A stretch of DNA of 61,937 bases from Acidobacteriota bacterium (GCA_005808475.1 SYLY01000099.1:1-61937), one strand, 5' to 3'. Shown: positions 3,897-38,038, numbered from the stretch's first letter. Numbers and translations: made by a program. Notes: a model not told the origin generated them from the letters alone.

Positions 3897-6507
<2,611 letters not shown>

Positions 6508-8347: not shown

Positions 8348-9682
8348 CTACTTCGGTTCGGCTGGCGTCTGCGCGCCCTGCGCCGACGCCGTCGCGTTCA
8401 GCCGCCCTTCGAAATCGGAAAGCTGCTTTCTCACCACGTCCGCGTCGCCGGCGCTTGGCGCGAACTTCAGATACCCCTTGATGTTGTCGACCGCGCCCTG
8501 GTAGTCGTCCTTCATCGCCAGCAGGATGCCCAGCAGATGCTGCGCCTTCGGGAACCGGTGCCTCTCGTCCCGCTGCACCGTTTCACGCGCGCTCTTTTCG
8601 GCTTCCTCGTACTTTTGCAGATTGTAGTAGGCCACCGAATTGTAGAAATACGCTTGCGGGAAATCGATCGGGTTCAGCTTGATGATCCGGTTGGTATTCT
8701 CGGCGACGCCCTGCCAATTTTGGGCGCCGATCGCCATGCCCGCCAACTGCAGGTACGGCTTCACGAACCGCGAGTCGGCGGCGATCGCCTGCTGGTACGC
8801 CTTGAGCGCTTCGTCGTTCTGCTGCGTGGCTTCGTACACGCGGCCCAATTCGTGCCAGGCCACCGCGTACTTGGGATAGACCGTAGTCGCTTTCTCGAAC
8901 TCCTTCCGCGCTTCGGCGGGCTTCTTCTTCTTCAACAGGTCCAGCCCCTTCTCATACGACTTGCGGGCGTCCTTGGGAGCCATCGCCGTCGTCATGCTGA
9001 ACGTCTTGCCTTCTACATTGGCGATCGGCTTCATGATGATCGTGCCGACATCCGGGTTGTCCATCATGCGCCGGCCGCTCAGGTTGACGATGTCCGACCG
9101 GTAGCCCGCCAGATTGGCGCGCAATTCGCATCCCATCAGGTCGCGTTCGCTGATGCCGCGCCGCGAACCCATGCTCCCCATCGAGGAGTTCATGCCGCCC
9201 GCGCCGCCTCCCGCCTGGGGGAATCCTCCACCGAACCCGTCGCTATTGGAATAGCTGGCATCGGCCATCATCGCCGAGTTTTGGCCGAGTTGAAAGCTGA
9301 AGCGCCCCTTGGAATCGGTCCAGCCCTCCGGCCTTGCCTGGCCATTGCAGACGCGTTCGATCTGCACGGGCTCCGGTGGCGGCGTGCCGTCGTCCATCAC
9401 TACTTTGCCCGACAGGAAGATCGGGCGTTCCATTTCCGGGAATCGATTCTGCTGGTTCCGCCCGTTCGGATCGAACGGATCGTTACGGCCGGGTTGCGGC
9501 GTTGTCGTGGGGCCCCGTCCGGGAGCCGCGCCGACGCCTTCGGTGGTCCCGATGGGTCCTCCTCCGGCAGGCGCGCCGGTTGCGCCGCCGCCACCTCCAG
9601 CCGCCGGAGGCGGAGCCTGAGTTTGCTCCTGCGCCATGGCTCCCAGGGCCAGCGCCGCGATCACGCACAGTTGACGGGACAT
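8348..9682 (-). CDS. secreted TPR-repeat protein with N-terminal carboxypeptidase-regulatory-like (CarboxypepD_reg) domain
   Basis: Signal peptide MSRQLCVIAALALGAMA, a Gly/Pro-rich linker, a GKVVMDDGTPP...DSKGRFSF beta-sandwich motif, and C-terminal TPR repeats. Start chosen at the internal ATG (9680-9682); the upstream part of the long ORF is low-complexity junk. Confidence 0.7.
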   Translation of the reverse strand: MSRQLCVIAALALGAMAQEQTQAPPPAAGGGGGATGAPAGGGPIGTTEGVGAAPGRGPTTTPQPGRNDPFDPNGRNQQNRFPEMERPIFLSGKVVMDDGTPPPEPVQIERVCNGQARPEGWTDSKGRFSFQLGQNSAMMADASYSNSDGFGGGFPQAGGGAGGMNSSMGSMGSRRGISERDLMGCELRANLAGYRSDIVNLSGRRMMDNPDVGTIIMKPIANVEGKTFSMTTAMAPKDARKSYEKGLDLLKKKKPAEARKEFEKATTVYPKYAVAWHELGRVYEATQQNDEALKAYQQAIAADSRFVKPYLQLAGMAIGAQNWQGVAENTNRIIKLNPIDFPQAYFYNSVAYYNLQKYEEAEKSARETVQRDERHRFPKAQHLLGILLAMKDDYQGAVDNIKGYLKFAPSAGDADVVRKQLSDFEGRLNATASAQGAQTPAEPK

Positions 9683-30439: not shown

Positions 30440-30957
30440 TTGCTGGCGCAGGTGAAGAGTGGGGCCTGGACGCTGGTGCAAGAGGCCGACCGGCTGGAGA
30501 TGAGCTACCGTCAGGCCAAGCGGTTATGGAAGCAATACAAGAAGAAGCGTGCGGTAGGGCTCGTGCATGGCAGCGCCGGACGAACCTGCAATCGGGCCAA
30601 GCCCAAGGAGCTACGTCGGAAGGTGGTGCGACAGATCGGCCAGAAATATTCCGGTGAAGTGGGCAAGCGGTTCGGGCCGACGCTGGCGACTGAGCACTTG
30701 GCAAGCGAGGACGGGGTTGAGTTGCCGGTGACGACGATCAGGCGGTGGTAGCGGAGGGATTATGGAGAAGTGCGAGAAAGGCGCGTCAGCATCGGCAGAG
30801 ACGGGAGCGGCGCGAGCACTTCGGGGATCTGGTGCGGATGGACGGAGGCTTTCATGAATGGCTCGAAGATGGCGGACCGCGGGGCTGCATCATGAACATG
30901 GTTTCAACGACGATCCCGGCATTCCCTGCCCAATACGCGATTCGGAGGAGTCCATGA
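30440..30957 (+). pseudogene. ISNCY-like (DDE/rve-type) transposase N-terminal remnant, frameshifted and truncated
   Basis: HTH region MSYRQAKRLWKQYKKKRAVGLVHGSAGRTCNRA and ...FGPTLATEHLASEDGVEL... then, in another frame, HRQRRERREHFGDLVRMDGGFHEWLEDGGPRGCIMNMV. The catalytic DDE core is absent. Confidence 0.6.
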
Positions 30958-31244: not shown

Positions 31245-31448
31245 ATGAGCCAAGGCGGGGAGATCGTTCTTCCGGCTGAGTTTCTTCGAGAAATCCCGGC
31301 GGGGCAGCAACTGAAGGTCGTCGTAATGTGGGAGGCCGGATCGGCCGACACGGCGTGGCGTGCAGCCGGGCGGCTGAGATTCGAAGAAGCCTACGGCGCC
31401 GAGGACGTTATCTACGATCAACTCATCAATGAAACTCCAGGTCGCTGA
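31245..31448 (+). CDS. putative antitoxin (small AbrB/MazE-like) of MazF/PemK toxin
   Basis: 67-aa ORF whose stop overlaps the MazF-like toxin start by 20 nt. An in-frame TGA lies 15 codons upstream of the ATG. Confidence 0.5.
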   Translation: MSQGGEIVLPAEFLREIPAGQQLKVVVMWEAGSADTAWRAAGRLRFEEAYGAEDVIYDQLINETPGR

Positions 31449-31755
31449 AGTCGTATTGATCCGCATGCAGTTTCATCAGGCTCCGGGCTCGAAGATCCGG
31501 CCCGCGCTTGTCCTGATGGATCCGGGTGACGAGGATTTCGTGGCTGCGCCGATCACGTCTCAGCCGAGGGCGTCCGAGTTTGACTTGGCCGTCGCGGACT
31601 GGCAGCCGGCTGGTCTCAATGTTCCTTCGATGGTGCGAGTGCACAAACTTACCGTTCTGTCCAAGGCCGATATTGTTCGCCGGCTTGGAGTCTGTTCAAG
31701 CGCCGATCAGGAAGCGCTAGCAAAGCTACTGTGCCGCGTGTTTTGCCCAGCGTGA
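31429..31755 (+). CDS. MazF/PemK family toxin (type II TA endoribonuclease)
   Basis: AEVVLIRMQFHQAPGSKIRPALVLMD...FVAAPITSQPR...VRVHKLTVLSKADIVRRLG matches the PemK/MazF signature (RPALV, APITS). Confidence 0.8.
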   Translation: MKLQVAEVVLIRMQFHQAPGSKIRPALVLMDPGDEDFVAAPITSQPRASEFDLAVADWQPAGLNVPSMVRVHKLTVLSKADIVRRLGVCSSADQEALAKLLCRVFCPA

Positions 31756-32111: not shown

Positions 32112-35100
32112 ATGAAGCTGCTTGCATTCGCGGTCCTCGCATCGGCGGCGGTCCACGCCCAATCGTCCACGGCGTCGCTCTCCGGCGTCATCACCGATCC
32201 CAGCGGCGCCATCATCCCCAGCGTGGACGTCGCCGCGCGGCACGTCGACACCAATCGCGGCTTCTCCGCGCGGACCGACAACGATGGCCGTTACAACCTG
32301 TTGACGCTGCCGATCGGGCGGTACTCCGTTTCCGCCACGGCGCAGGGATTCAAAACGCTGGAGCGCGAAGTGGAACTGACCGTGAACCAGTCGGCCAACC
32401 TGAACCTGCGGATGCAGGTGGGCCAGACCACGGAGGTGGTGGATGTCACCGCGCAGGCCCCGCTGGTGAATGCCACCAACTCCACCGTGGGGACGTTGAT
32501 GGAATCGCGCCAGGTGCTCGATCTGCCGCTCAACGGCCGCAACTTCACGCAGTTGATCGCGCTCACTCCGGGCGTCGCCAACGTTGACGTGTCGCAGGGA
32601 GGCGCGGGGCCGGCGGTGCAAGGCCAGCGCAACCGCAGCAATCTGTACCTCGCCGACGGCGTGATCAACTCGAACCTGGCGGGCAGCCAGATATCGGTTT
32701 CGCCGCCGCTCGACTCGATCCAGGAGTTCCGCGTGGAGTCGGTCCACAACGACGCCGAGTTCGGAGGCGCGTCGGGAGCTTACGTCAATCTCTCGACCAA
32801 AGCCGGGACCAACCGGCTTCACGGCACGGCCTACGACTTTCTCCGCAACGACGTGCTCAACGCACGCAATACGTTCCAGCCCACCGTGCCCAAGTTCCGT
32901 AACAACATCTACGGATTCTCGGTGGGCGCGCCGCTGCTGATTCCCAAGGTCTACAACGGCAAGGACCGGACGTGGTTCTTCGTCAGCCACGAAGGCGTGA
33001 AGAACCGCGCCTCGTCGTCGAGCATCACGCGGGTCGCCAACGCCGCCGAGCGGGCGGGCAACTTCGCCGGAACGGCCGTGTTCGACCCGTACTCGACGCG
33101 CTCCGATCCGGCGCGGCCCACGGCGTTCCTGCGCGATCCGTTCCCGGGCGGACAGGTTCCGGCGGCTCGTTTCCACCGCATCGCCGCGCGTTATCTCGCC
33201 GACTTCTCGCCGCTTCCCAACTTCACGCTGGCGGGCACGGTGAACAACTATCTGGTGACCGGGCCCAACAAGAGCGACACCGGAATCTGGGTGTTCCGCG
33301 TGGATCACACGTTGTCGCAAAAGGACCGCGTGTCGCTGCGGTCCACGCGGTCGGACGCCTCGTCGGAAAACGTGGGCATCTCGCCGGTGATCACGCTGGG
33401 CGTGAGCGACGTTCGCAACTGGAGCGCTGAATGGAATCGCATCATCTCGCCCACCACGCTGCTCACGGTGCGATACGGCTACAACCGCAACCGCTCCGAC
33501 AATTCGTACCGGAACGTGGAGAAGGTGTCGGAGTTCATCGGTTTCGCCGACTCGTATAACTCAGACGCGTTCTCGACGCGCATTCCAGATCGCGCGCTGT
33601 TCCCGGGCTATGGGATTCAGAACTACGCGGGCCTGGTTGGGACAGGCTACTCACCCACCGACAACTTCCCGCACTCCGGCGCGGTGAACCTGCAGAAGAC
33701 AATCGGCCGGCACTCCTTCAAAGCCGGTTTCAATCTGATGCACTTCGACTACTACACCAGCGGCATCTCGCAGACGCTGAACTTCACCGCGCAGCCGACG
33801 CAGAATCCGGCCGCGCCGGCGGGCACCGGCCAGCCGTTGGCGAGCTTTCTGCTAGGCGTGCCATCCAACGCCACCCGTCCGCTGGGAAATCCGGACATCG
33901 ACGCTCATGGTTGGATGTACGCTATCCACCTTTCCGACACCTTCCGGGTCAACGGCCGGCTGAGCCTCAACTACGGCGTCCGCTGGGACAAGAACGGGAA
34001 CTTCCTGTCGCGAAGCGGAACGATGGGGAGCTTCGACCGAACGACCGGAGCATGGCTGCTCGACGGTCCCATCAATATCCCCGGCGCGATCTTCCAAGGT
34101 CCCAACGTCCGGCGCGGCTTCGTCGATCCCGACTGGAACAACTTCTCTCCGCGGCTGGGCGCGGCCTACTCGATCACCCAGAAGACGGTGGTTCGCGCGG
34201 GCATGTCCACGTTTTACGAGATGTTCGCCGGCTGGTTGCAGATCGCGCAGGGCAACCGCAACGCATGGCCGCATTCCACATTTCAATCCACCGACACCCT
34301 GAACGCGACGGTTCCCACCGTGTTCATCGACCGGCCGTTCCGCGGTCTGCCGGACCGGGTGGACCGTCCGAATCCGTTCCCCTCGGCCGGCTATCATCTC
34401 AACCGCTTCTTCAAGACGCCCTACGTCCACGAGTGGAACGTGTCGGTGGAGCGCCAGTTCAGCGACCGTCTGGCGGCGTCGGTCACCTATGTCGGAGCGA
34501 AAGGCCGGACGCTCGAATGCTGCGGCCTGACGAACTATTCCACCGTTCTCGCCGCCGGCAACGCGCGGGCGCCGGAACGCGTCCCGTACCCGAACATGCT
34601 GGTGTTCCGCACCAACGACAACAGCGGCAGATCCGACTATCACGGGCTGCAAACCAAGATCGAGCAACGGTTCCACAACGGACTCTCGTTCTCGTTCAAC
34701 TACACGTTCTCCAAGTCGATCGATCTGGCGTGTTCGGGCTACATCGGCGCGGAAGGGTGCAATCTGCAGCAGCCCTACAATCTGTCCGCCGAGCGCGGCG
34801 TGTCCAGCTACGATCTGACGCATATCGCCAACGCCACGTTCATCTACGAGATCCCGTTCAAGCCACGCAACTACGCGGTGAACCTGATCGCCGGCGGATG
34901 GCAGACCAGCGGCATCCTGAACTGGCGGAGCGGACTTCCGTTGACGCCCGGTCTGGCCGTGGACAACGCGAACAACAGCGGCAGCCAGCAGCGTCCGAAT
35001 CTGGTGGGCGACGCGGGCCTGGCCGGGCAGAGCCGTCTGCGTTGGTTCAACACCGCGGCGTTCGCGCTGCCCGCCCGCTACACCTACGGCAACGCCGGCA

Positions 35101-35330
35101 GGAACATACTGCGCGGACCCGCGGCGGCCACGCAGAGCCTGTCGTTGTTCAAGAACTTCGCCGTGCTGCCCGAACGGCTGAAAGTGCAGTTCCGCTCGGA
35201 CTTCTTCAACGCGTTCAACCATCCGTTGCTCGGGAGTCCGGGGCTCACGTTCGACACGCCTACGTTCGGCCAGATCAACTCGGCGTCGGGCAATCGCACG
35301 ATCCAGATGTCGCTGAAGGCGATCTTCTGA
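32112..35330 (+). CDS. TonB-dependent receptor with N-terminal CarboxypepD_reg-like domain
   Basis: Signal peptide. SGVITDPSGAIIPSVDVAARHVDTNRGFSARTDNDGRYNLLTLPIGRYSVSATAQGFKT (CarboxypepD_reg), plug, and a 1072-aa beta-barrel with a C-terminal aromatic residue. Confidence 0.9.
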   Translation: MKLLAFAVLASAAVHAQSSTASLSGVITDPSGAIIPSVDVAARHVDTNRGFSARTDNDGRYNLLTLPIGRYSVSATAQGFKTLEREVELTVNQSANLNLRMQVGQTTEVVDVTAQAPLVNATNSTVGTLMESRQVLDLPLNGRNFTQLIALTPGVANVDVSQGGAGPAVQGQRNRSNLYLADGVINSNLAGSQISVSPPLDSIQEFRVESVHNDAEFGGASGAYVNLSTKAGTNRLHGTAYDFLRNDVLNARNTFQPTVPKFRNNIYGFSVGAPLLIPKVYNGKDRTWFFVSHEGVKNRASSSSITRVANAAERAGNFAGTAVFDPYSTRSDPARPTAFLRDPFPGGQVPAARFHRIAARYLADFSPLPNFTLAGTVNNYLVTGPNKSDTGIWVFRVDHTLSQKDRVSLRSTRSDASSENVGISPVITLGVSDVRNWSAEWNRIISPTTLLTVRYGYNRNRSDNSYRNVEKVSEFIGFADSYNSDAFSTRIPDRALFPGYGIQNYAGLVGTGYSPTDNFPHSGAVNLQKTIGRHSFKAGFNLMHFDYYTSGISQTLNFTAQPTQNPAAPAGTGQPLASFLLGVPSNATRPLGNPDIDAHGWMYAIHLSDTFRVNGRLSLNYGVRWDKNGNFLSRSGTMGSFDRTTGAWLLDGPINIPGAIFQGPNVRRGFVDPDWNNFSPRLGAAYSITQKTVVRAGMSTFYEMFAGWLQIAQGNRNAWPHSTFQSTDTLNATVPTVFIDRPFRGLPDRVDRPNPFPSAGYHLNRFFKTPYVHEWNVSVERQFSDRLAASVTYVGAKGRTLECCGLTNYSTVLAAGNARAPERVPYPNMLVFRTNDNSGRSDYHGLQTKIEQRFHNGLSFSFNYTFSKSIDLACSGYIGAEGCNLQQPYNLSAERGVSSYDLTHIANATFIYEIPFKPRNYAVNLIAGGWQTSGILNWRSGLPLTPGLAVDNANNSGSQQRPNLVGDAGLAGQSRLRWFNTAAFALPARYTYGNAGRNILRGPAAATQSLSLFKNFAVLPERLKVQFRSDFFNAFNHPLLGSPGLTFDTPTFGQINSASGNRTIQMSLKAIF

Positions 35331-35950
35331 CGCTGCCGCTCCCGTGGTGCTGAAGGAACAGCAGCCGGAAGGCGGCTTCGTGTCGATCGACAGCCTGATC
35401 GCGCCGCCGCCGAAGCCGGCCGCCAAGATGGAAGAAGTCAGTTCGTTCGGCGACTAGTTTTCTCGCGGGGCAACCCAAAGAAGGCCACCGGATGTACCGG
35501 TCGAAGCTCTGCTTGTAGCGCACTGCCTCGGCGTCATGCAGCGAGGCCAACCTTATCTCCGAATCCAGCGAGTAGTGAAGCTGGCGGGTGAGTCCCAGGC
35601 GATTTGCGGCGTACCGCGCGTCGAGTTCCGGATTGAGTTCACGCGCCGCCTAGAAGTGGGCCACGCGCAGCGTCCGCCCGTAGCACTTGAAGCCGTGCCG
35701 CAAGGTGGCGAGCGGGCCCTTCGGAATCCATCCACTTGCACAGGCCGCTCAGCACCTGATCGCTGGTCCTGTCTCCGAGCAGAGCTTCCAACTTCCGCCA
35801 CTCCTCGGGCTGCGTTTCGCGGATGACGCCAGCACCTCCACGGGGAAGATGGCATCCTCACGGCCAAAGCTGCCCGCCGGAACCGCATTGTATCCGCCTT
35901 CGAGCAGTTCCTTCTCGATCACCGTCTCAAAGGCGTATTCGCTGATCGTT
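35331..35950 (-). pseudogene. gene debris: frameshifted fragments including an HsdR-like N-terminus (MKTISEYAFETVIEKELLEGGY...)
   Basis: Minus-strand protein-like segments in three different frames separated by stops (MKTISEYAFETV...; ...EEWRKLEALLGDRTSDQVLSGLCKWMDSEGP...; ...ELNPELDARYAANRLGLTRQLHYSLDSEIRLASLHDAEAVRYKQSF...). A 42-codon plus-strand ORF tail follows the TonB receptor stop. Confidence 0.45.
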
Positions 35951-35951
35951 T

Positions 35952-36446
35952 TCATACGCCCACTCCCAGGACAAACCTCGCCCGCTCGCGCCGTAACATT
36001 TCGTGAGGCAGCACACTCCCCAAGCCCAGGCCAAGGCAAGCGTCTGGAATCTTGACCCGATTCACGGAGCCACCTGGCACTTCGTAGGTCACTACCGCGT
36101 GCCCGCCCTGGCGGGCTTGCGCCACGAGATGGAAATCGGCCGTTTGCAGAAACTCGTTGATGGCAGGTGTCCTATAGTTCTGGCTCGATGCCCAGGTGCT
36201 CACGGCGGTAAAGTGCGGGACCGTCGCCGCATCGGGCGACAAGAAGAACGTTCCCGGCAACGCCTTCACCCATTCGGCCAAGTCGTCCTGCTGGTCCTTC
36301 AATTCGTCATAGACGCGCTCGATGCTGTAGACCCGGCCAACCCTGTGCTCCGCGACGATCCAATCCCAGAATCCCGGACAGAAGTCGAACCCGTAGTGGA
36401 CACGCTTCGCCGTGATCAGGACATTGCTGTCGAGCAAGTAGGCCAT
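35952..36446 (-). CDS. DUF4411 family PIN-like protein (putative toxin/nuclease)
   Basis: MAYLLDSNVLITAKRVHYGFDFCPGFWDWI is the DUF4411 signature. 1-nt overlap with the upstream ImmA/IrrE gene. Confidence 0.75.
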   Translation of the reverse strand: MAYLLDSNVLITAKRVHYGFDFCPGFWDWIVAEHRVGRVYSIERVYDELKDQQDDLAEWVKALPGTFFLSPDAATVPHFTAVSTWASSQNYRTPAINEFLQTADFHLVAQARQGGHAVVTYEVPGGSVNRVKIPDACLGLGLGSVLPHEMLRRERARFVLGVGV

Positions 36447-37600
36447 TAGCCACTGAACCCCAATCTCCGCGCGAGGCTGTCGAATGTCATGACCCTCTTG
36501 CACCCGAGCAGGCGCATGGCTTCCCGGAACGTGGTCCGGCCGCCCAAAGTGCTTGCGACCAGGGCATGTTCGAACCGGTGGCTGACGCGCGCGCCGAGCG
36601 TCCGGTAGAAGTCGCCACCCCCGGTGGCGGCGGGAGCCACTTCCTTTAGCTTCTCCACCTCTTTCCTGTATTCAGCCCAAAACTGCTCGCGGCTCCGAAA
36701 TGCCCCGGCTTCCCACATGCGGCGGAGAATGACGAGGCTGCTTACCTTGAATCGGCGCGTGAGCCGTGCCGTCGCGTCCGCTACGACTTCCCCCGCCTGC
36801 AACTCCTGCTCGAGGACGGCCAGCGGTACCAGCACCTCGGCCGACACTTGGTTGCACCAGCGCTCGGTCGCTTCATCGGGAAACGCAGATGCCTCGGCAT
36901 CGGAGAGCGCCGATTCGCCCAGCGCAAGATGCGCCAGTTCATGGGCGATGGTGAACATCCGCGCGGACTTCGAATCAGCGCCGTTGACGAAGACGAGCGG
37001 CGCATGCGGATGCGCCAGCGCAAACCCGCGAAACTCATTCGGGTCGAGTTTCCGGTGCGTGTTGCTTCCCACCACCCCGCTGACCATGATCAGGATGCCC
37101 GCGTCCTCGACCGACTGAATCATGCGACGCAGGGCCTCGGCCCAGGTGCGATCCAGTCTGCGCTGCTCCAGATCGAAGGCAATGGCGTCCCGGATCATTC
37201 GTGCCGCATCCGCGGTCGCCGTGGTCCTCGTCAGGGAGCCCACCAGACGCACCGGGTCCAAGCGCTCCTCGCGCGCGAACTCTTCGAACCAAGCCTGCCG
37301 CTGCTGGCACAGGTAAATCGTGTCGAGAAGGTCTCCGCTCGGCCGTCTCAACGCCTCTGGGCGCCGCGTGCGAAAGTCCGGGATCGGAAGAGGTTCTTCC
37401 GGCGGCGCGGCGAGAAAGAAGTACCCAAACGGCGTGTAGGTGGCGGCGGCGAAATCTTCCAGTTGCCGGAACGTGGGCGCGGACTCGCGCTCCAGCCACG
37501 CGTTGAGCCTTGGAAACCTCCGCTCGAGCATCTCCGGTTTTTTGCCGGAACGCTCCACGGCCCAACGCAGGATTTCGGGCGCAACCTCCATATGAGCCAT
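36446..37600 (-). CDS. ImmA/IrrE family metallo-endopeptidase with N-terminal HTH-like domain
   Basis: Zn-peptidase HEXXH (FTIAHELAHLAL). N-terminal domain resembling the XRE/antitoxin module. Canonical partner of DUF4411. Confidence 0.75.
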   Translation of the reverse strand: MAHMEVAPEILRWAVERSGKKPEMLERRFPRLNAWLERESAPTFRQLEDFAAATYTPFGYFFLAAPPEEPLPIPDFRTRRPEALRRPSGDLLDTIYLCQQRQAWFEEFAREERLDPVRLVGSLTRTTATADAARMIRDAIAFDLEQRRLDRTWAEALRRMIQSVEDAGILIMVSGVVGSNTHRKLDPNEFRGFALAHPHAPLVFVNGADSKSARMFTIAHELAHLALGESALSDAEASAFPDEATERWCNQVSAEVLVPLAVLEQELQAGEVVADATARLTRRFKVSSLVILRRMWEAGAFRSREQFWAEYRKEVEKLKEVAPAATGGGDFYRTLGARVSHRFEHALVASTLGGRTTFREAMRLLGCKRVMTFDSLARRLGFSG

Positions 37601-38038
37601 GGTATCGTAACGGTTCCGGCCCCTGATCTTGCTGGACATTTCCGAGCAGTTCGGGTACCGCGGAGTGGATGAATGCGAGCAGGAGGCGTGGACTCCCCAG
37701 CAGTGGGAGAGTCGGCCGAGCTCTCACGATCGAGTGGCTGACGCAGGAACTGGAGCGGTTGCGGGAGCAATCGGCTGCAACAGACCAAGAGATCAAGCAG
37801 CAGCAAGAGCGCATCGGCCAATTTCCGCCAGTTCGGCGAAGGAGATCGCGCGGCGGTTCTCCCGGTCCATCGCGGCCGTTGCCGGCGAGCGCCTGAAGTT
37901 CCCGACGCCGCAACCGGTCATGCCGAAATCATGGAGGAGATCGGGTAGGGCGAGCGGGTCCACAAAGCGGATCGTCCGGTTTCCCGCGGTAGAGGCGGCG
38001 GCTCCGCGCATCCGGCGGTTCGCGGCGTATCCCGCGCG

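Follow-up and report, generated by a model that had tools for sequence, protein, structure and literature searches.

Which system does a two-gene module of an acidobacterial genome belong to, and what was the broken coding sequence beside it? The question is raised by a stretch of 61,937 nucleotides from an Acidobacteriota bacterium (GCA_005808475.1, SYLY01000099.1:1-61937; the whole stretch is referred to here as the window). In it, a gene for a DUF4411 protein lies directly downstream of one for a zinc peptidase of the M78 (ImmA-IrrE) family, with about 600 bp of gene debris beyond it. An earlier interpretation (the sequence-only reading) had taken the module for a toxin and protease-antitoxin or abortive-infection pair, the only intact part of a decayed defence island. 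Based on the analysis described below, we consider it probable that the locus is a stand-alone toxin-antitoxin (TA) or abortive-infection module of the VapBC52 type, the surviving core of a type I restriction-modification (R-M) operon.

The two genes were found on the minus strand where they had been placed (Table 1). As had been read, they overlap by 1 nt, the stop codon of the peptidase gene and the start codon of DUF4411 sharing a nucleotide in ...GGC TAA TGG... (TAATG); this overlap is common to 58 of 76 related pairs. The maximal open reading frame (ORF) of the peptidase gene, 36446-37639, would encode 397 residues from its first ATG (37639). Because every relative starts at the ATG at 37600, we took the protein to be 384 residues long, rather than 397 or the 385 given by the sequence-only reading; the HEXXH motif of that reading was confirmed as HELAH. 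The hidden Markov models that it had named matched both proteins: PF14367 was covered in full by the DUF4411 protein (E = 8e-46), and PF06114 (Peptidase_M78) matched the peptidase with E = 4.4e-15.

A search of solved structures returned PDB entry 9VZY, the VapB52/VapC52 complex of Mycobacterium tuberculosis. The window antitoxin matched 9vzy_A with E = 6.5e-18 as a single sequence and 3.2e-35 with a 25-sequence family profile, the profile alignment extending over positions 6-346 of 382 and residues 2-356 of 393. Similarly, DUF4411 matched 9vzy_D with E = 3.6e-5 as a single sequence and 2.3e-9 with a profile. On sequence and profile comparison, the pair is homologous to VapB52/VapC52 gene for gene and domain for domain, over nearly the full length of both proteins. 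The toxin and protease-antitoxin interpretation thus gains a relative that has been shown experimentally to be a TA and anti-phage system. Conversely, the statement that the mechanism of DUF4411/ImmA pairs was essentially uncharacterised is out of date: it was described by Singh et al. (NAR, June 2026; PDB 9VZY and 9VZZ; PMC13273310), following a prediction in 2017 (PMC5499597). VapC52 is a PIN tRNase that arrests growth; its PIN-domain residues D6, E48, D99, and E117 were targeted by mutation, and crystals were obtained of the D6A variant. VapB52 comprises an Xre-like N-terminal domain (NTD), an M78 peptidase with an internal helix-turn-helix (HTH), and a helical C-terminal domain (CTD), and binds the toxin dimer 1:2. 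Specifically, the NTD binds the dimer and is removed by self-cleavage, and the CTD occludes the toxin active site. In response to single-stranded DNA (ssDNA), VapB52 cleaves itself and sheds the NTD, the cut probably falling at a conserved FR motif, and overexpression of VapC52 protects M. smegmatis from phage D29 (PMC13273310).

The window pair has the same gene order as VapBC52 (Rv2515c/Rv2514c), and its toxin is likewise a DUF4411 PIN protein of ~160 residues with the same four acidic residues: D6, E48, D104, and E122 correspond to D6, E48, D99, and E117 of VapC52. Among 45 sequences, D6, D104, and E122 were invariant and E48 was nearly so. The AlphaFold2 (AF2) model of DUF4411 had a pLDDT of 92, and its best folds were those of Shigella VapC, FitB, M. 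tuberculosis VapC11, and PAE2754. According to this model, the protein folds as a PIN/VapC toxin, in agreement with the PIN-like assignment of the sequence-only reading.

The antitoxin resembles VapB52 along its whole layout: both are of ~390 residues, with an HTH-like NTD, a DFR/FR linker, an M78 domain of the HExxH+E type with internal HTH, and a helical CTD of ~58 residues. The AF2 model of the window protein had a pLDDT of 80; confidence was low in the linkers of the DFR region, the switch loop, and the CTD junction. The folds that it matched best were CapP (7T5T), PprI/IrrE, and PrpR, the same three families that are listed for VapB52 in PMC13273310. In the model, the NTD helices comprise residues 8-18, 22-28, 32-36, 44-54, and 58-62. 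The Pfam HTH models gave no match on the peptidase N-terminus; single-sequence and profile searches aligned it with the Xre-type NTD of VapB52, and some homologues are labelled 'XRE-family HTH domain' at JGI. The HTH-like domain that had been proposed here is therefore a five-helix homologue of the VapB52 NTD. The DFR motif was strongly conserved across 77 related proteins, D and R being invariant and F present in 69, and its linker had a low pLDDT of ~60; from the alignment we infer that it is the putative self-cleavage site of the window antitoxin. The zinc-site residues H220, E221, H224, and E246 were invariant in 77 sequences. Finally, the profile alignment reached the start of the VapB52 CTD (GGGNWYR), giving a common pattern of GGG(D/N)(F/W)YR and CTD lengths of 58 and 59 residues in the window protein and VapB52, respectively.

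In fold, three-domain antitoxin, FR motif, and gene order, the sequences identify the window pair as a VapBC52-type TA; the cysteine switch of that type is absent. In the switch loop between HELAH and E246, Ser233 is aligned with Cys229 of VapB52, the fourth zinc ligand, and position 233 among 77 sequences of the clade was Ser in 71, Thr in five, Asp in one, and Cys in none. The switch cysteine is also missing from IrrE and some CapP homologues; ssDNA stimulates IrrE, which is active without it too. The cysteine is therefore not required for membership of the family, yet its replacement is a real regulatory difference. The window antitoxin also differs from VapB52 in having no disordered 23-residue N-terminal extension.

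The debris has a single origin. The sequence-only reading had described multiply frameshifted fragments including a sequence like the N-terminus of a type I restriction R subunit; the frameshifted R subunit was confirmed, and the ~620 bp of debris (35331-35951) reduced to one pseudogene, which derives from the 5' part of a type I hsdR. The ATG of this pseudogene shares bases with the stop codon of DUF4411 (ATGA; GTATGAAA) and opens a 68-codon minus-strand ORF (35955-35749). The first block matches residues 1-136 of the intact, 1013-residue HsdR of the closest related locus, L006 (tblastn E = 8e-45, 65% identity). At the nucleotide level, the two are 84.5% identical with one gap on each side. 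In the second block, 35529-35490 (40 nt, HsdR codons ~597-610) matches L006 9910-9949 at 95% (blastn). The Pfam model HSDR_N gave no match on the repaired stub, and the stub is identified as hsdR because it matches the L006 protein, which bears HSDR_N, ResIII, and T1R_D3 domains. The damage amounts to two frameshifts, one nonsense codon, one internal deletion, and a 3' truncation. Specifically, block 1 contains a 1-nt deletion at ~35826, a compensating 1-nt insertion at ~35716, and a change of AAG to TAG at 35652-35650; a ~1.39 kb deletion joins the two blocks, and the last ~400 codons are lost. The differences from L006 in block 1 number 9, 7, and 44 at the first, second, and third codon positions. 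Because they are concentrated at third positions, the divergence of the stub accrued mostly under selection, and the decay is comparatively recent. In the final ~120 bp of debris, neither a remnant of hsdM or hsdS nor another element was detected by tblastn, blastn, or Pfam.

Comparison with relatives showed what the debris had been part of. In L006 and a second locus, L009, whose DUF4411 proteins are 94% and 81% identical to that of the window, respectively, the pair lies in an intact hsdM-hsdS-M78-DUF4411-hsdR operon with overlapping boundaries at every gene junction. The window is collinear with L006 from 37607 to 35556 at 83% nucleotide identity. When the flanks of the window were compared with L006, L009, and a third locus, L012, only the pair and the stub were shared. 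The decayed defence island is thus specifically a type I operon. The ancestor was hsdM-hsdS-[M78 antitoxin-DUF4411 toxin]-hsdR, with the pair as a built-in, translationally coupled cassette. In the acidobacterial lineage, hsdM and hsdS were deleted to within 7 nt of the antitoxin start, and hsdR was broken by deletions, frameshifts, and a stop codon. With tblastn of HsdM and HsdS, no trace of either gene was found anywhere in the 62-kb window, and the 430-bp spacer upstream of the pair matched nothing in tblastn, blastn, or, for its ORFs, Pfam.

Table 1. Features of the islet and its borders, in positions of the window.
Feature	Position	Strand	Remarks
TonB-dependent receptor gene	32112-35330	plus	adjoins the debris side of the islet
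hsdR pseudogene, block 2	35449..35529	minus	codons ~597-621; tblastn, residues 597-621, E = 0.003
hsdR pseudogene, block 1	35556..35955	minus	codons 1 to ~133; tblastn against intact L006 HsdR
DUF4411 PIN-like nuclease gene (VapC52 homologue)	35952..36446	minus	164 aa; begins MAYLLDSNVL
M78/ImmA-IrrE peptidase gene (VapB52 homologue)	36446..37600	minus	384 aa; stop codon 36448-36446
Antitoxin layout		minus	HTH / M78 (ImmA-IrrE) zinc peptidase / C-terminal helical domain
C-terminal helical domain	36449..36622	minus	~residues 327-384; begins GGGDFYR; four helices in model
Zinc site	36863..36943	minus	H220-E221-L-A-H224 (36929-36943); third ligand E246 (36863-36865)
D75-F76-R77 motif	37370..37378	minus	flexible linker; aligns with VapB52 FR motif (F75, R76)
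N-terminal domain	37415..37600	minus	~residues 1-62; five short helices; Xre/cro-C1-type HTH-like
New upstream junction	37601..38038		last position homologous to intact operons, 37607, is 7 nt upstream of the antitoxin ATG

The pair has escaped the damage that struck its neighbour. Both ORFs are intact and all catalytic and motif residues are kept. The 1647-nt pair contains no small disabling lesion versus three in the adjacent 400-nt stub; at the rate of the stub, ~12 lesions would be expected in the pair, a crude figure given the wide interval around three events. Relative to L006, dN/dS was 0.13 for the peptidase and 0.056 for DUF4411. In wholly stand-alone clades, it was 0.10-0.13 for the antitoxin and 0.01-0.09 for the toxin. 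This strong purifying selection in the stand-alone clades indicates that the pair is maintained without R-M.

The wider context was surveyed in GTDB, using one genome per species and the best 80 of at least 540 hits, which came from many phyla. An M78 gene lay directly upstream of DUF4411 in all 80 loci, and ~30 of the 80 (~38%) were embedded in type I systems. The downstream hsdR was full and adjacent in 23 loci, cut by contig ends in three, and of a more distant type in four more. The ATGA/GTGA stop-start overlap of DUF4411 and hsdR that is present in the window was found in 22 of 28 embedded loci. Stubs of hsdR occurred elsewhere as well: two loci carried long ones (residues 1-207 and 2-295) and four carried short N-terminal scraps of 30-35 residues directly after DUF4411, with the pair intact in all six. 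A rough neighbour-joining tree of the concatenated pair, with 75 tips, mixed embedded and stand-alone loci and implied at least 20 changes between the two states. The HsdR partners were 21-88% identical to one another, so the cassette travels with diverse type I systems. In RefSeq, a plasmid of Acetobacter vaccinii has the order HTH, N-6 methylase, S subunit, ImmA-IrrE, DUF4411, Abi, R subunit, and in the Sphingomonas plasmid pCADAB1 the pair stands at the end of a row of TA modules.

Individual loci of the survey showed further arrangements. In locus L035, an N-terminal scrap of hsdM is fused just upstream of the M78 gene (5650-5778) and the hsdR stub of residues 1-207 is present; locus L057 (5558-5851) has only a C-terminal fragment of hsdS, without hsdR. 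These two loci are other decay states of the same hsd operon. Among the type I operons that contain the pair (L018, L037, L058, L059, L028, L092, and L176), several have an additional 1-3 kb of coding sequence on one side of the pair, towards either hsdS or hsdR, as exemplified by the 'Abi family protein' on the A. vaccinii plasmid. Such additions suggest that accessory defence genes generally land in the gap between hsdS and hsdR. In L012, a stand-alone pair, 73% identical, lies beside GSU0053/GSU0054-type cas genes and a Cas3-like helicase. We considered the 89-aa ORF downstream of this pair (8556-8825) as an hsdR stub and rejected it; by eye it looks like a Phd/YefM-type antitoxin.

By analogy with VapBC52, the window pair would work as follows. 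One 384-aa antitoxin would keep a PIN toxin dimer inactive, its NTD gripping the dimer and its CTD covering the active site. Upon DNA damage or phage replication, ssDNA would bind the IrrE/CapP-like middle domain and stimulate the zinc peptidase, which would then cut its own chain at the DFR linker and remove the NTD. The complex would dissociate, and the freed PIN nuclease would cleave tRNAs of the host, the phage, or both, in the anticodon or variable loop. As an outcome, translation would stop and the phage yield would drop. Because Ser replaces the cysteine switch, the resting inhibition in the window clade is probably looser, as it is in IrrE. The pair probably outlived the R-M genes by its independent usefulness, by the lethality of losing the antitoxin gene first (addiction), or by both.

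Several observations weigh against this interpretation of the locus. Identity to the characterised M. tuberculosis proteins is low, as the single-sequence E values indicate, so the target RNAs and the trigger could differ, and toxicity, cleavage, and phage defence are known only from those proteins. The cysteine that autoinhibits VapB52 and CapP is missing. In addition, the last ~40 residues of the antitoxin fall outside the alignment to the solved structure. The dN/dS values of the window relative to its relatives mostly reflect the time before the R-M genes decayed. Finally, a promoter and terminator scan recognised no sigma-70-like promoter or terminator between the cupin gene and the pair, the hsdM-side upstream region having been lost; expression of the pair is therefore assumed, perhaps by read-through from the cupin gene.

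Four other explanations were weighed. The pair might have evolved as a built-in accessory of the type I enzyme, a guardian or back-up as PrrC is in EcoprrI. It would be set off by inhibition or overloading of restriction, or by ssDNA arising from restriction and RecBCD, and without HsdMSR it would be functionally orphaned or merely addictive. We consider this unlikely, although it is attractive for the embedded loci. Like prrC, the cassette lies between hsdS and hsdR, and its toxin family shares with PrrC the cleavage of tRNA; ATGA overlaps occur on both sides in most embedded loci. Moreover, ~38% of relatives are embedded, the A. vaccinii plasmid preserves the M-S-ImmA-DUF4411-Abi-R order, and the divergence of the pair correlates moderately with that of HsdR (Mantel r = 0.44, 5 of 5000 permutations). 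Set against this, most relatives and VapBC52 of M. tuberculosis itself are stand-alone, the purifying selection in stand-alone clades shows that the pair works without R-M, and HsdR partners down to 21% identical argue against a specific protein-protein dependence. A role as accessory is not needed for stand-alone maintenance and cannot apply in the window, where no R-M system is left. A relic without current function, the part of a dead operon that is not yet hit, would fit the recent look of the decay (third-position bias of 9/7/44), the lack of a recognised promoter, and the population copies, whose 99.9-100% identity leaves no within-population signal. This is quite improbable in view of the intact catalytic and motif residues and the absence of lesions from the pair, where ~12 would be expected, next to a stub with three and two large deletions. 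Further, an intact pair with an hsdR stub recurs in at least six other species, and long-standing stand-alone lineages keep dN/dS near 0.1.

Another explanation casts the HTH-peptidase as a DNA-damage switch like CapH/CapP or ImmR/ImmA, made in one chain. It would have controlled transcription of the hsd operon or degraded HsdR (restriction alleviation), with DUF4411 as an accessory nuclease. In structure, the middle domain comes nearest to CapP, IrrE, and PrpR, the NTD of VapB52 most resembles the R-M controller protein C.Csp231I (PMC13273310), and the IrrE-like protease ArdC can act on type I restriction. We nevertheless judge a regulator to be very improbable: the VapBC52 antitoxin is its own substrate, and its PIN partner is the toxin that arrests growth; embedded loci have the gene inside the operon, without a promoter-bearing intergenic region; and no R-M system survives in the window for it to regulate. 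In older predictions and some reports, COG2856 proteases are regarded as the toxins of Xre-COG2856 modules, by which the zinc peptidase would be the toxin here and the HTH or PIN protein its neutraliser. Such a reversal of roles is extremely improbable, as VapC52 (PIN) was the toxin and VapB52 the antitoxin when the direct homologue was tested, and the PIN active site is strictly conserved in DUF4411.

The VapBC52-type reading was also compared with other known systems. The combination of DUF4411 with a fused HTH-DUF955 was predicted to be a three-component TA (Matelska et al., NAR 2017, PMC5499597). This 'DUF4411.1 + HTH + DUF955/COG2856' TA (Matelska 2017; Makarova et al. 2009) has exactly the architecture of the window, with DUF4411 downstream of the fused HTH-DUF955. 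PrrC of EcoprrI, a type IC system, resembles the embedded toxins in that it is a latent toxin that cuts tRNA and is encoded between hsdS and hsdR; the analogy is one of position and target class. The proteins are unrelated, PrrC being an ABC-ATPase-type anticodon nuclease and the window family PIN. In addition, the R-M enzyme itself keeps PrrC silent and a phage anti-restriction peptide activates it, whereas the DUF4411 toxin would have a dedicated protease-antitoxin and work without R-M. The CapH/CapP, DdrO/IrrE, and ImmR/ImmA systems share the M78 peptidase with internal HTH and provide the best structural matches of the window middle domain; ssDNA is the activating ligand of CapP, IrrE, and VapB52. 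Those systems differ in being two-protein transcription switches with a GAF domain and a separate repressor as substrate. In the window system, substrate and protease are one chain with no evident GAF domain, and the output would be toxin release.

Membership of three systems was rejected. The capP model matched only the peptidase core (E = 6e-13), the HTH is fused rather than encoded in a repressor ORF of its own, and neither CBASS nor another operon adjoins the islet, so the pair was not assigned to CapH/CapP. RosmerTA has in RmrA an antitoxin that likewise combines an HTH with a zinc peptidase, and its RmrT differs as a membrane-depolarising toxin of unknown fold. The window antitoxin had only weak matches to RmrA in PADLOC (best E = 6e-8), and DUF4411 had no PADLOC match at E <= 1, including RmrT. 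A type I R-M system was rejected since only the broken hsdR stub is present, with neither hsdM nor hsdS in the 62-kb window. Separately, ArdC, an ssDNA-binding protein with an IrrE-like metalloprotease domain, defeats the hsdRMS restriction of the recipient (PMC7213743); an M78-type protease is thus also linked to type I R-M in the anti-restriction direction.

The islet thereby changes from an uncharacterised defence islet to a VapBC52-type TA left from a dead type I restriction operon, a useful example rather than a surprise. The window pair is a diverged, previously undescribed representative of the VapBC52 family, whose architecture was predicted in 2017 and characterised in 2026. The regular embedding between hsdS and hsdR and the repeated survival of R-M decay are not covered in PMC13273310, where the R-M context common in the window clade is unmentioned, and are only touched on in PMC5499597. 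The latter is a prediction that remarks on PIN-like toxins transcriptionally coupled to type I R-M subunits; it does not single out DUF4411 as a recurrent cassette between hsdS and hsdR or describe survival after the decay of R-M. The wider pattern, in which about four of ten relatives across species-level genomes of many phyla have the cassette inserted, with stop and start codons overlapping, in the slot between hsdS and hsdR, would allow a test of whether TA cassettes stabilise or back up restriction systems. The antitoxins without the cysteine switch form a natural series for probing the activation of M78 peptidases by ssDNA. As a tentative and rather doubtful generalisation, VapBC52-like cassettes might regularly provide many type I R-M systems with a second layer that is coupled to them in function. 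They would be a PIN counterpart of PrrC whose alarm is ssDNA or failed restriction, and also an addictive element that keeps, and then outlives, its host operon. If that were true, the window would be a snapshot of a life cycle from R-M operon through stub and pair to naked TA.

The G+C content of the islet, ~63-64%, was the same as that of its flanks. On the side opposite the TonB-dependent receptor gene, the flank contains cupin, glycosyltransferase-like, and further genes, with 430 bp separating the pair from the co-oriented cupin gene. Repeats around the islet were considered as boundaries and rejected, as those found in a repeat scan look like chance matches and do not coincide with the boundaries of homology. 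A tRNA integration site was likewise rejected, the sole tRNA of the window being 19 kb away. Metagenomes were scanned with the cupin protein for an empty site: in the 40 loci compared, each of 5 kb or more, the pair was absent and no downstream synteny was shared, which shows only that the islet is lineage-specific. Exact copies of the window DUF4411 protein were present on at least nine metagenomic contigs. The longer ones, of up to 115 kb, have the same neighbours; genes nearby include CarboxypepD_reg-type TonB-dependent receptors.

Two further features lie beyond the TonB-dependent receptor gene, where the G+C content drops to 0.60-0.62 at 30-32 kb. On the plus strand, 360 nt upstream of that gene, a TA-like pair (31245-31755) consists of a 67-aa ORF without a Pfam match that overlaps a 108-aa PemK/MazF-family toxin (PF02452, E = 4.8e-10). 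Two short consecutive ORFs at 30440-30957, also on the plus strand, look like a broken transposase N-terminus, with weak HTH_32, HTH_28, and HTH_29 matches in the first and no match in the second. With these ORFs on one side and the islet on the other, the TonB-dependent receptor gene has mobile or defence debris on both sides.

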